A stretch of 64,000 nt of DNA from Candidatus Poribacteria bacterium (GTDB lineage: Bacteria; Poribacteria; WGA-4E; PCPOR2b). The stretch is taken from contig OZ220744.1 of NCBI GenBank assembly GCA_965116925.1, positions 2,208,001 to 2,272,000 on the forward strand, given 5' to 3'. Every line of letters begins with the position of its first letter. Position 1 is the first letter of the stretch. A program made the translations under genes and the position numbers. The notes under the pieces are model-generated. The model was not told where the DNA came from. It did no database searches and saw nothing but the letters and a program-made list of their open reading frames with translations. Below, piece after piece: positions 11,913 through 14,452 of this stretch.

Positions 11913-11929
11913 TTGGCATGTTAATTGCT
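11913..11929 (+). promoter_or_regulatory. sigma-54 (-24/-12) promoter
   Basis: TTGGCATGTTAATTGCT = TGGCA-N6-TTGC with exact GG-N10-GC spacing. Confidence 0.75.
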
Positions 11930-12475
11930 CCTTATGAGTTTGTGGTTGAATCCTTTAACCGTAACGCGTAGCGGAAAAGCATAGATTTTCAATGATTAGC
12001 AATAGATTAGCTTATTCTCAAAGCGGGTGTGCTAAGACATTTTGTGAAGTTGAAAATCTTTTCTTTCCGGACAGAATGCTAAACGCATTCTTAACAGTTT
12101 ATAGGAGGAATTAAAGTTAGGACTTACGCAATTCAGTAGAATGCCTTAATGGAGTCCCTACTGAAGTTGCCCGTCTCTTAATCCCGATAAATCGGGGATT
12201 CATCGGACGTTGGGAATTGTGTCCTGCAGCGATTCATCACCAAACTACAGGATCTCGATCGTTCAACTGCGTAAGTCCTATAAGGTGTTATTTGTTTCTA
12301 ACGTAGAAGTTTTTTCCCTAACGGAATGCTAACGCATTCCCTTTAATGCCAAAAGTTTCGACAAAAACAAAGGACTGTGTGATTCGACGATGCAGCCTTT
12401 TTCTGTGCCGATTTATCGGCATCCTCGACAAGTCGGGATTTTCAGGTCGAAACGATGGCTACAAGGAGATTCACT

Positions 12476-12874
12476 ATGTTTGCAACAAAAGGACGGTTGA
12501 AAGTCTTGTTGCTAGTAGTTTCGTTGTTGGTGGTTGGTTTGGGGATGTATGCGGCTTTTCAGGTTCAGGAAGTTCATGCCCATGTTAGATTCCATTCGGG
12601 GGCCGACAATGATTTATTTCACTACAGCAAATCCGGCCACAAATACAAGTGGAAAGATATGTCGTCGGATACGATCAGTGGTACTTGCTCGTATTGTGGA
12701 AGTTCGACTACAATCAATCGAACTCGCGTCAGAGAGGAGTGCTGGAATGTAACAAACACCTATCACCGTATAGTTCATTCTTTCTGTCACAGACATTGGC
12801 TTAATATAAAATGGGCACGGTATTATTGGCGGCTTGATTCGGTAACGTGTTCAAATTCAAGCTGCGGAGGTTAG
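12476..12874 (+). CDS. small secreted Cys/His-rich hypothetical protein
   Basis: AAGGAG RBS, signal peptide ending VHA, 6 Cys (CxxC, Cx4C) and 8 His in the predicted mature part. Confidence 0.75.
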   Translation: MFATKGRLKVLLLVVSLLVVGLGMYAAFQVQEVHAHVRFHSGADNDLFHYSKSGHKYKWKDMSSDTISGTCSYCGSSTTINRTRVREECWNVTNTYHRIVHSFCHRHWLNIKWARYYWRLDSVTCSNSSCGG

Positions 12875-12956
12875 TTGAATCCGTATGAGCGCGTGGTTCG
12901 GGGCAGGTGGTTAACCTTGTCCTAGCCCATACATACTTATTGAGGAGGTTATTACC

Positions 12957-14312
12957 ATGTTCAATCGTCGTTTCATACCCTATATCATTCTGGCAGGACT
13001 GATACTGGTGTTATCGGCCTGCTACATCAGTTATAGGGCATATCAGAAACACCTTGCATTCGAGCGATTTATCTCGGACGCCTCATCGTTTAATAGGTCT
13101 ATTGAACACAACGACAAAGATAGGCATGTTCATCCTACCGATACGCATAGCCATCGACAGCGTGATGCCGATAGCAATCCAGTCCCACCAGCAGCAGATG
13201 ATATCGCTAACCCCTTTTTCATTGGCAAACAGGGCAATGAGTATGTTTATAAAGTCGGTGTGGGAGATTACGGGCATATCTATACATCTGAACCTTTTGA
13301 TCGGGGGTTTATAGAGATGCAAGCGTGGGAGATTACGGGCGAAAAAACCCCTTATGTGGAGAAGCGTCTAAAGGAGCTTGCCGAGAATTCGCCCTATAAA
13401 GGTCAGGTTGTCCAGCGAATCGTAACCCCTGACGGTCAACTGCACAACGTGATTGTCCCGCACGACAGGCAGTATGAGGAAGGGGACGCGATATTACGGT
13501 CAGAGTTAGACCCGCCGATTTTAGAAGCACTTGAGCAGGACCAGCCCCCAGCGCGTGTTGAGGTAGCAGGCGAACCGATACCCGATGAATACTATGCGAT
13601 AGAAGATCCCTATGAACGTCACGAGTTCATAGACAAGGTCGGACTCAGTAAACAATTAAAGATCTCGATGGTGGAGATTGAAGCAAAGATAGCAAAGGGT
13701 GAAATTGATGTGTCGTTATCGGCGACACAAAAAGAGAATGTCGATAACAACCTGGCAATGGAGGAAAGAGGACGTATATTAAACTCTTTTGCCAAACCGG
13801 TTCCGTCTGATAAACCGCCGGTGAAGGTGCGGTTGCTGTCTGATACTGCTGAAGACGCACTACCGGGGTGGATGCGAAAATTGGGGGACACCCTCCCGTC
13901 AGGAAGTAGCGAGGCAGTACCCGATGGGGACTATTCAGCAACAGACCCCTTTTCTGAGGGAAGCATCAATGAAGATGCAAGTGGTGCCCCGGTTCGCTCT
14001 GATGTTCCTGTATCTCCATCAGATCTCCCCGATATAGTCAAGCCTATATCCCCTCAAAGTGTAGCGGACATTGAAAAACAGTTGACACCACAGGGGATTG
14101 AAGCGGAACTGAGCGAAGGGCTATCACCGGAGCGTTTTGATAAGGCACAACAGTTGATAGACCAGTACGGCACAGAGGAGGGGCTTCGTCGCCTACGGAC
14201 GATGGATCCTGAAGCAGCTCGTCGATTTGAGTCCGATAAATCGAGACCAAAGCGGGAGCGACGCAATTCACCTACCCGTGACACATCGGATGATGCAGCC
14301 TCGACACAGTAG
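12957..14312 (+). CDS. hypothetical protein with N-terminal membrane anchor and helical C-terminal module
   Basis: GAGGAGG RBS, 451-aa ORF, N-terminal TM, His-rich linker, C-terminal SPERFDKAQQLIDQYGTEEGLRRLR. Confidence 0.85.
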   Translation: MFNRRFIPYIILAGLILVLSACYISYRAYQKHLAFERFISDASSFNRSIEHNDKDRHVHPTDTHSHRQRDADSNPVPPAADDIANPFFIGKQGNEYVYKVGVGDYGHIYTSEPFDRGFIEMQAWEITGEKTPYVEKRLKELAENSPYKGQVVQRIVTPDGQLHNVIVPHDRQYEEGDAILRSELDPPILEALEQDQPPARVEVAGEPIPDEYYAIEDPYERHEFIDKVGLSKQLKISMVEIEAKIAKGEIDVSLSATQKENVDNNLAMEERGRILNSFAKPVPSDKPPVKVRLLSDTAEDALPGWMRKLGDTLPSGSSEAVPDGDYSATDPFSEGSINEDASGAPVRSDVPVSPSDLPDIVKPISPQSVADIEKQLTPQGIEAELSEGLSPERFDKAQQLIDQYGTEEGLRRLRTMDPEAARRFESDKSRPKRERRNSPTRDTSDDAASTQ

Positions 14313-14336
14313 GGTTGCGTCTGAGATTCACACTGT

Positions 14337-14377
14337 AAGCGGTATCACGCCCTTTTGGGGGGTGATACCGCTTTTTT
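14337..14377 (+). terminator. rho-independent terminator (related copies 53590-53621 and 55545-55585)
   Basis: AAGCGGTATCAC...GTGATACCGC followed by a T-tract. Confidence 0.8.
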
Positions 14378-14452
14378 ATTTATCTCTGAGAAAAAAGTCA
14401 GGGACTGGCTTTTTAACCCTTCCCCTTGCATATACGCCTTGACTAGATCTTC

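Follow-up and report, generated by a model that had tools for sequence, protein, structure and literature searches.

We analyzed a 64,000-nucleotide stretch of DNA (the window; G000:C1:2208001-2272000) from a Candidatus Poribacteria genome of 6.47 Mb, hereafter G000. Poribacteria live as symbionts in sponges, where they are abundant; they are uncultured, and many of their genes lack an explanation. The named matches to the window's proteins come from Candidatus Poribacteria. A preliminary description had pointed to two loci of like layout, each with a gene for a small, Cys-rich signal-peptide protein (hereafter S) and a gene for a membrane-anchored partner (hereafter T). All four open reading frames (ORFs) are present as described, each with a ribosome-binding site (RBS), in the order S-T at locus A and T-S at locus B; a simple gene caller overlooked both S genes, and S genes were detected by a separate scan for a signal plus Cys. 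The small proteins indeed begin, in their predicted mature form, with His (cleavage, placed by eye, falls between VHA and H in S_A and between SFS and H in S_B), and both partners, T_A (as modelled) and T_B, have a linker and a helical C-terminus behind the anchor. None of the four proteins had a match near the cut-off in Pfam or NCBIfam.

S_A (12476..12874, + strand), a candidate toxin, has 132 amino acids (aa), a hydrophobic N-terminus, six Cys residues and a 97-aa mature part, and its signal peptide is common to different cargo classes. T_A (12957..14312, +), a candidate immunity or escort protein of 451 aa, is composed of an anchor, linkers, a variable domain and, at its C-terminal end, a conserved helical module of 50 aa (14097..14240, +), which defines the family and lies outside the predicted S interface. 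The pair is preceded by a degenerate 3' part of the family leader (12360..12475, +): a hairpin with a T tail is followed by the RBS, and a short repeat resembling repetitive extragenic palindromic elements interrupts it. Positions 12439-12547 show 77% identity to the leader and signal of the G000 cassette at 4235360. The family trailer (14337..14385, +) is an intrinsic-terminator hairpin of the GCGGTATCAC..GTGATACCGC type.

A profile of the module had matches in 108 of 151 Poribacteria genomes, with 1-32 copies in each; G000 contains seven module genes, five of which have S directly upstream. A search with a profile of T_A gave 376 clusters at 50% identity. We fetched 80 stretches around module matches, excluding weaker matches, and obtained 89 module ORFs, 82 of them full-length with at least 700 nt upstream. 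A strict S (defined by an RBS, a signal, a length of 60-230 aa and at least two Cys, directly upstream of T) precedes 28 of these 82 T genes, compared with 45 of 4078 ordinary genes; this co-occurrence of the two gene types was a check that the preliminary description had proposed. The cassette is polymorphic and occurs across Poribacteria, with locus A as one of its copies. The diversifying family of cognate pairs suspected from the two loci is thus supported both genome-wide and phylum-wide, but the family is real on evidence other than the motifs that had been put forward for it.

The S types are mutually unrelated: some are long beta ribbons, others are helical hairpins containing 4-8 Cys, and there are also beta-rich proteins of larger size and hairpins with two Cys. 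A third gene, U, whose product has an anchor, a CxxC or CxCC motif and a helix, lies downstream in 20 of the 82 cases and accompanies helical S (9/13 versus 0/20). In the genus of G000, the helical class often has a fourth gene, V, which encodes a 172-aa signal-peptide beta-repeat protein. A linked type, seen in 5 of 13 relative loci parsed, combines a 230-aa T with a hairpin that is hydrophobic, rich in Ala and closed by two Cys, and in it the module is placed on U. At L145-L148 the module ends U rather than T where T is short and helical, in an arrangement that is intact in L146 and broken in the others. T genes also occur in arrays. Beside the cassettes examined, we found no recombinase or large trafficking domain, no linked transporter gene and no conserved regulator, and neither a peptidase-ABC transporter (of the ATP-binding cassette type) nor a modifying enzyme is conserved in the cassette. 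G000 possesses a type II secretion system (T2SS) operon (GspD, E, F, G, J, K).

The idea that variable cargo sits in a conserved frame is supported across the genome and the phylum, but the frame differs from the motif named for it. On its 5' side it consists of a leader with a GGGCTG..GCAGCCC hairpin together with the signal peptide, and on its 3' side of the module together with the terminator. Signal peptides are common to different cargo types. Comparison of 415 cross-class cassette pairs yielded 130 DNA matches, 48 in the leader or signal peptide, 82 in the module or trailer (the 3' zone being the final 130 codons of T plus the trailer) and none elsewhere. The best 40 have 66-94% identity, and the 5' ones among them end at or before the signal cleavage site. 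The leader hairpin was present at 11 of 28 S-bearing T loci, at none of 54 S-less ones and at 39 of 4513 background genes. Next, we compared the variable parts of the two proteins. Clusters of S agreed with clusters of the T middle domain (adjusted Rand index 0.59 over 49 pairs; 0 of 5000 permutations), and only one S cluster spanned two T clusters. Within the ribbon class, the distance between mature S sequences correlated with T-domain distance (rho 0.62; 0/2000) as against 0.09 (449/2000) for module distance, and in the helical class it correlated with both the T domain (0.75) and the module (0.50). Such matched classes point to units travelling together and not to binding, because co-inheritance alone yields matching.

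The motif in question, GA(A/T)TGCT..CGCAT, had been noted shortly before RBSs at both loci. We rejected it as a family signal. It has six matches in the genome, three of them inside the window, where the three matches to the shortened pattern compare with an expectation of 1.23 and where 14 of 100 shuffles also contain that many; among relatives it lies upstream of 1 of 82 T loci. At locus A, both copies are palindromic hairpins, located some 400 and 150 nt upstream of the start of S (12073..12091, +, which is confined to locus A and is no family feature, and 12323..12341, +), and the copy at locus B does not form the A-type palindromic hairpin on folding. Between the two hairpins, and so upstream of the cassette, is inserted an element resembling a miniature inverted-repeat transposable element (12119..12283, strand unassigned), with ends set by eye at TAGGA[CG]TTACGCA terminal repeats; this terminal pattern has 246 matches in the genome. 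Several such inverted-repeat elements, this one included, occur in the cassette flanks of the window at 12119-12283, 51695-51874 and 52082-52215. A search of Rfam with positions 10780-14500 gave no match at E 1. The proposed homology of the GGTATC..GATACC terminators held in part. Each of the three (A, B and a third copy) forms a hairpin followed by a T tail (z -7.6, -4.4 and -5.7, respectively), and the A trailer and the third copy are homologous, with an alignment score of 65, tied best non-self among 72 genomic GGTATC..GATACC matches. The B terminator resembles that of A only partly, in its 3' stem and tail (score 37, 10th of 72 with self and reverse-strand copies counted), and is of the GGGGTATC..GATACCCC type that is found after the fourth gene of family cassettes in relatives.

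We also modelled the proteins of locus A. T_A is predicted to have a transmembrane (TM) helix at 7-48, a disordered, His-rich linker at 48-80, a confidently modelled folded domain at 80-312, a second disordered stretch at 314-377 and helices at 370-428. About six residues are cytoplasmic and no signalling domain is present in the model; the basic N-terminus would place the remainder of T on the periplasmic side. Mature S_A was modelled as a ribbon of three antiparallel strands of 21-24 residues (predicted local distance difference test, pLDDT, 88), with Cys gathered at one end and His at the opposite end. The model of the S_A-T_A complex scored 0.86, compared with 0.01 for the best of three controls; that mark was reached by 116 of 157 solved pairs and 2 of 215 mismatched pairs. 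The runs had at least 50% of contacts in common, with a partner pLDDT of at least 77. In this model the T_A variable domain is predicted to clasp both free beta edges of S_A, through contacts of T_A 107-111 and 200-203 with S_A 106-108 and 50-53 on the two outer strands, and the module makes no confident contact with S. The model supports, rather than demonstrates, S-T binding, and its score is set against three controls, none of them a non-cognate T. Conservation of T was 0.45 in interface columns (n=55), 0.66 in the rest of the domain (n=172) and 0.82 in the module. Foldseek found nothing at E 0.001 in the PDB or BFVD, and the VIA fold list for T_A was filled by TM-helix matches that barely covered the middle domain and the module. 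The PDB sequence search gave nothing at E < 0.2 with T and module profiles, and none at E 10 with the T_A profile. No recognisable toxin domain or immunity family was found in Pfam or NCBIfam, and the fold searches were weak; among them was a weak match to laterosporulin.

The two genes differ in how often they occur alone. We fetched 20 loci by the leader alone, and 16 of 18 intact S were directly followed by an anchored partner of at least 314 aa; the two exceptions were one S at a contig end and one with its partner 1.07 kb away. All 10 S matches in five genomes have an intact T, with 6 of the 27 profile rows having come from those loci. Conversely, 54 of the 82 T genes lack a strict S upstream. 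The upstream regions of 56 S-less T genes contained six broken S remnants and two intact one-Cys S that fell below the filter. At site A, one relative (G047) is empty, G000 has S-T, and two others (G040 and G043) have T behind a shared S remnant. For this orphan T pair with the shared S deletion, the nonsynonymous (dN) and synonymous (dS) divergences were 0.023 and 0.084 (dN/dS 0.27, 232 codons), and the next gene had a dS of 0.23. This suggests purifying selection on orphan T and that a cargo-less T was exchanged recently. The 97%-complete draft of G043, in which the orphan T is present, yielded no intact S of the ribbon class. Mature S gave dN/dS values of 0.43-1.74 in nine same-genus pairs and 0.09-0.83 in four pairs of another family, values that are noisy because the alignments are short.

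Based on these results, we propose, at roughly even confidence, that S is an antibacterial toxin and T its cognate anchored periplasmic immunity protein; among the functions suggested at the outset, effector/immunity fits best, effector/chaperone second and metal binding third. S would cross the inner membrane by means of its signal peptide and is predicted to form disulfides, and the T variable domain would then grip both of its free beta edges, shielding the producer during the periplasmic passage of S and neutralising matching S that arrives from neighbours. T genes without S would serve as orphan immunity and on that account be retained or pass from one species to another. Recombination, acting on one side in the leader and signal peptide and on the other in the module and terminator, would swap mature S and the binding domain as a block, and the constant module may dock on a common partner, for which U (CxxC/CxCC), a protease and the type II secretion machine are candidates. 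A toxin-immunity pair explains the small, hypervariable, exported cargo, the variable interface, the block swapping, the rarity of S without T and the orphan T genes that are kept. As in polymorphic toxin-immunity systems, variable cargo and its cognate partner are swapped between conserved flanks, and orphan partner genes and arrays occur. The S cargo looks like bacteriocins, both in the dN/dS of mature S and in the two-Cys, Ala-rich hairpin class. Anchored immunity proteins at the periplasmic face of the inner membrane, and orphans of them, are known from the available part of PMC4661593, and orphan immunity arrays from that of PMC12247911.

A modular binder system is also possible, if clearly less probable. 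T would be an anchored scaffold with an exchangeable recognition domain and a constant module, in an antibody-like manner, alongside unrelated secreted miniproteins. Any cargo captured, be it foreign or the cell's own, would be passed by the constant module to one shared machine, there to be exported, redox-processed or destroyed, and repertoires of up to 32 copies per genome would be renewed by recombination at both ends. We know of no earlier case of a constant module attached to an anchored binder that is exchangeable.

It is somewhat unlikely, to about the same degree, that T is a dedicated anchored secretion chaperone, like Lif or CpaB, which caps the sticky edges of a non-toxic cargo (an adhesin, fibre subunit or host-interaction protein) until T2SS takes over, with the module docking on T2SS. 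Several observations agree with this. T genes lie beside the gene of an exported protein, the model of T has an N-terminal TM helix and a C-terminal periplasmic region, and the host has T2SS. This topology of TM helix, unstructured linker and periplasmic domain is that of the known steric foldases in the accessible text of PMC13381987, and the location of T agrees with the positional part of the T2SS-chaperone definition as given in the accessible text of PMC4713064. In addition, in the model of the complex S is a ribbon that has little core and is capped on both of its edge strands, and T genes of the tetratricopeptide repeat (TPR) type precede exported proteins with weak Zn-metalloprotease matches. 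However, a chaperone would be expected to decay after loss of its cargo, whereas intact T genes stand behind six broken S, with a dN/dS of 0.27 in one pair; G043 keeps T with no intact ribbon-class S found in its 97%-complete draft; T arrays outnumber S; and T_A has no match to Lipase_chap. We therefore favour toxin-immunity over a secretion chaperone, because T often outlives the loss of S under purifying selection.

Some further points bear on the choice between the two. That S almost never occurs without T also agrees with a chaperone, and a chaperone may serve distant cargo (LipB and LipC in the available part of PMC4713064), which weakens the objection drawn from orphan T. The matched S and T classes are explicable by co-inheritance alone and are hence no proof of binding. 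Moreover, the two functions can overlap, in that shielding the producer during export also confers immunity.

It is improbable, in our view, that S is a secreted metal-binding peptide, with its His end and Cys end, and T an anchored receptor that takes up this peptide, once loaded, in the periplasm. Within the ribbon class, many S are rich in His and several have a predicted mature N-terminal His and a CxxC, U has CxxC or CxCC, and a metal-efflux-like operon occupies site B in one relative (G015). However, many helical and hydrophobic S lack His, the cassettes examined have no transporter gene linked to them, and metal binding leaves the hypervariability, the block swapping and the orphan T unexplained. 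Least probable of all is a self/non-self recognition or signalling pair of peptide signal and cognate receptor, for which the cognate co-variation, the variable interface, the attenuator-like leader hairpin and the eavesdropping open to orphan receptors would speak, but T_A has only about six cytoplasmic residues and no signalling domain, and no regulator is conserved beside the cassettes examined.

We next compared the cassette with known systems. Polymorphic toxins such as Rhs and those of contact-dependent inhibition (CDI) have conserved flanks, a swapped block of cargo and partner, and a fast-evolving interface. The present cassettes differ from Rhs, CDI and type VI secretion system (T6SS) toxins in that no large trafficking domain or recombinase was found beside those examined, and in that what stays constant in them is the leader RNA together with the signal peptide, plus a module located at the distal end of the gene for the partner. 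Disulfide-stapled bacteriocins, among them laterosporulin with its weak fold match, resemble S in being small, Cys-rich and built as ribbons or helical hairpins whose Cys are spaced in a nested pattern, and have a CxxC-type neighbour comparable to U in the helical class. Glycocin and sublancin are CX6C hairpins. S differs from such bacteriocins in having a signal peptide instead of a double-glycine leader and in the lack of a sequence match. In colicin M and burkhocin M with Cmi and BmiB, as far as the available text of PMC4661593 goes, a toxin gene lies beside that of a singly N-terminally anchored periplasmic immunity protein, as in S/T, and both show co-varying pairs and orphan immunity or partner genes. 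The cassettes differ in that S has a cleavable signal peptide, a mature part of about 55-185 aa and several unrelated folds, and in that T is larger than its cargo and has a constant C-terminal module; no Pfam or NCBIfam match to the ColM catalytic domain or the YebF-like immunity domain was found in S or T. The T6SS rAID orphan immunity arrays in the accessible part of PMC12247911 are partner-only arrays, as are those of T. Lif/LipH/LipB and CpaB, in the parts of PMC13381987 and PMC4713064 available, share with T an adjacent gene, an N-terminal TM helix, a disordered linker and a periplasmic client-binding domain, and share with S/T either gene order and the presence of T2SS. They differ from it in that the clients here are tiny disulfide proteins rather than lipases, with 376 variant clusters and many partner-only copies; T_A has no Pfam match at E 0.1 to place it among Lif foldases, and its client is no lipase. 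The cassette works like polymorphic toxin-immunity or T2SS-chaperone pairs and belongs to no family tested. No relative was found in viral contigs. Contigs from four RNA runs (three studies) cover S/T relatives at low depth, are indistinguishable from DNA and give no evidence of expression. No paper on such cassettes was found in the literature covered, the scope of which did not extend to supplements and subscription Poribacteria pangenome papers; term searches of the available text of PMC5087111, PMC3909097 and bioRxiv 2023.06.09.544420 show no such cassettes.

Locus B had been placed in the same family as locus A. This stands for its site, and its two proteins are not shown to be members. 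T_B (52308..52907, +), an orphan of 199 aa, has a TM helix, an acidic linker and a helical end but no module, and S_B (52973..53470, +), also an orphan, has 165 aa, a signal peptide, a long helical part and a Cys-rich tail, with 11 Cys in all. None of the seven G000 matches of the module hidden Markov model lies at locus B. Against five class profiles, the B proteins gave a best E of 0.26 to one T class and no S-class match, and hhalign gave probabilities of 18% and 49% over only 34 and 10 columns. T_B has one 91% relative in 5.8 billion proteins. No significant homologue of S_B or T_B was found in 61 phylum genomes, two weak S_B matches (E 0.005 and 0.007) aside, and none in JGI metagenomes; an atlas search was blank for S_B and T_A. 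A juxtamembrane VYxxP motif was tried as a link between T_B and the family and rejected, since it occurs in 8 of 82 T versus 24 of 658 background proteins and T_B ranked 649th.

The site, after priA, tells more. The upstream flank (51871..52083, +) matches the DNA that precedes the S-T-U cassettes occupying this site in G040 (85% identity) and G050 (75% identity). Behind the pair lie a terminator hairpin of the type that trails gene V in helical-class cassettes (53591..53621, +), the sole site of this pattern in G000, and a 3' fragment of gene V itself (53887..54098, +), which spans 68 codons at 85% aa identity; V comes fourth in S-T-U-V cassettes. An insertion sequence with terminal inverted repeats (54097..55485, - strand; DDE transposase at 54123-55385) sits inside the old cassette site. 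Beyond it, the third trailer copy (55493..55698, +), correctly noted as homologous to the A trailer, comprises the last codons, terminator and flank of the G050/G040 site cassette (83%/80% identity); it is the terminator of the family cassette of site B and is positioned to terminate a convergent porin gene as well. Among relatives, the site is empty in G043, has the porin alone in G047 and is occupied by S-T-U cassettes in both G040 and G050. Because of these flanks, the V fragment, the V-type terminator and the third trailer, site B once held a family cassette; it is through this site that locus B belongs with the family, the place having been refilled with an unrelated pair of like layout, which probably works like the pair of locus A. 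Both sites A and B are accessory, being empty in some sister species and otherwise filled in others. In G015, the priA site (L127 535-6803) has a metal-efflux-like operon behind a small exported Cys protein, so that the site accepts other cargo. In the window, priA (49165-51620) is split into two frames of 720 and 98 aa, compared with open frames of about 826 aa in relatives; this frameshift is either an assembly error or a pseudogene.

We also observed further gene arrangements around the family. Anchored proteins of another family, which share a conserved domain at the C-terminus (G000 679014-681260, 2837036, 4718934 and 5184523; L036 9212), are sometimes encoded downstream of a small exported protein that has the family leader and otherwise occur in arrays or alone, and one member has the family trailer at its end. 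TPR-type T genes occur at L097, L098 and L111-L114; in L097, L098, L112 and L114 they are followed by an exported protein of 320-605 aa, and two of three scanned are weak Zn-metalloprotease matches. At L066, L067 and L103, from another Poribacteria family, STT3-like and ArnT/PMT-like glycosyltransferase genes lie directly 3' of T, which may reflect cargo glycosylation or chance context. Finally, an operon at L123 (G000 3573317-3578327) is conserved at L163, L164, L169 and L170. We take its order to be a membrane protein with redox features, a GspC-like protein, a sulfatase-modifying-factor-like protein, an anchored coiled-coil protein and a Cys-rich peptide, the last presumably with a signal anchor and then a double-glycine-like leader. 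The anchored protein has an N-terminal part in common with some T genes (E 3e-9), and the operon is possibly a system for ribosomally synthesized and post-translationally modified peptides.

Just two steric foldase classes are known from the accessible part of PMC13381987, and if T is a chaperone, a very large class would be added to these two. If S and T are instead toxin and immunity protein, they would show symbiont competition inside the sponge and would provide new antibacterial scaffolds by the dozen, all disulfide-stapled and each accompanied by its predicted antidote. The two possibilities predict opposite outcomes in one assay, and the pairs are small and can be produced by a laboratory strain.
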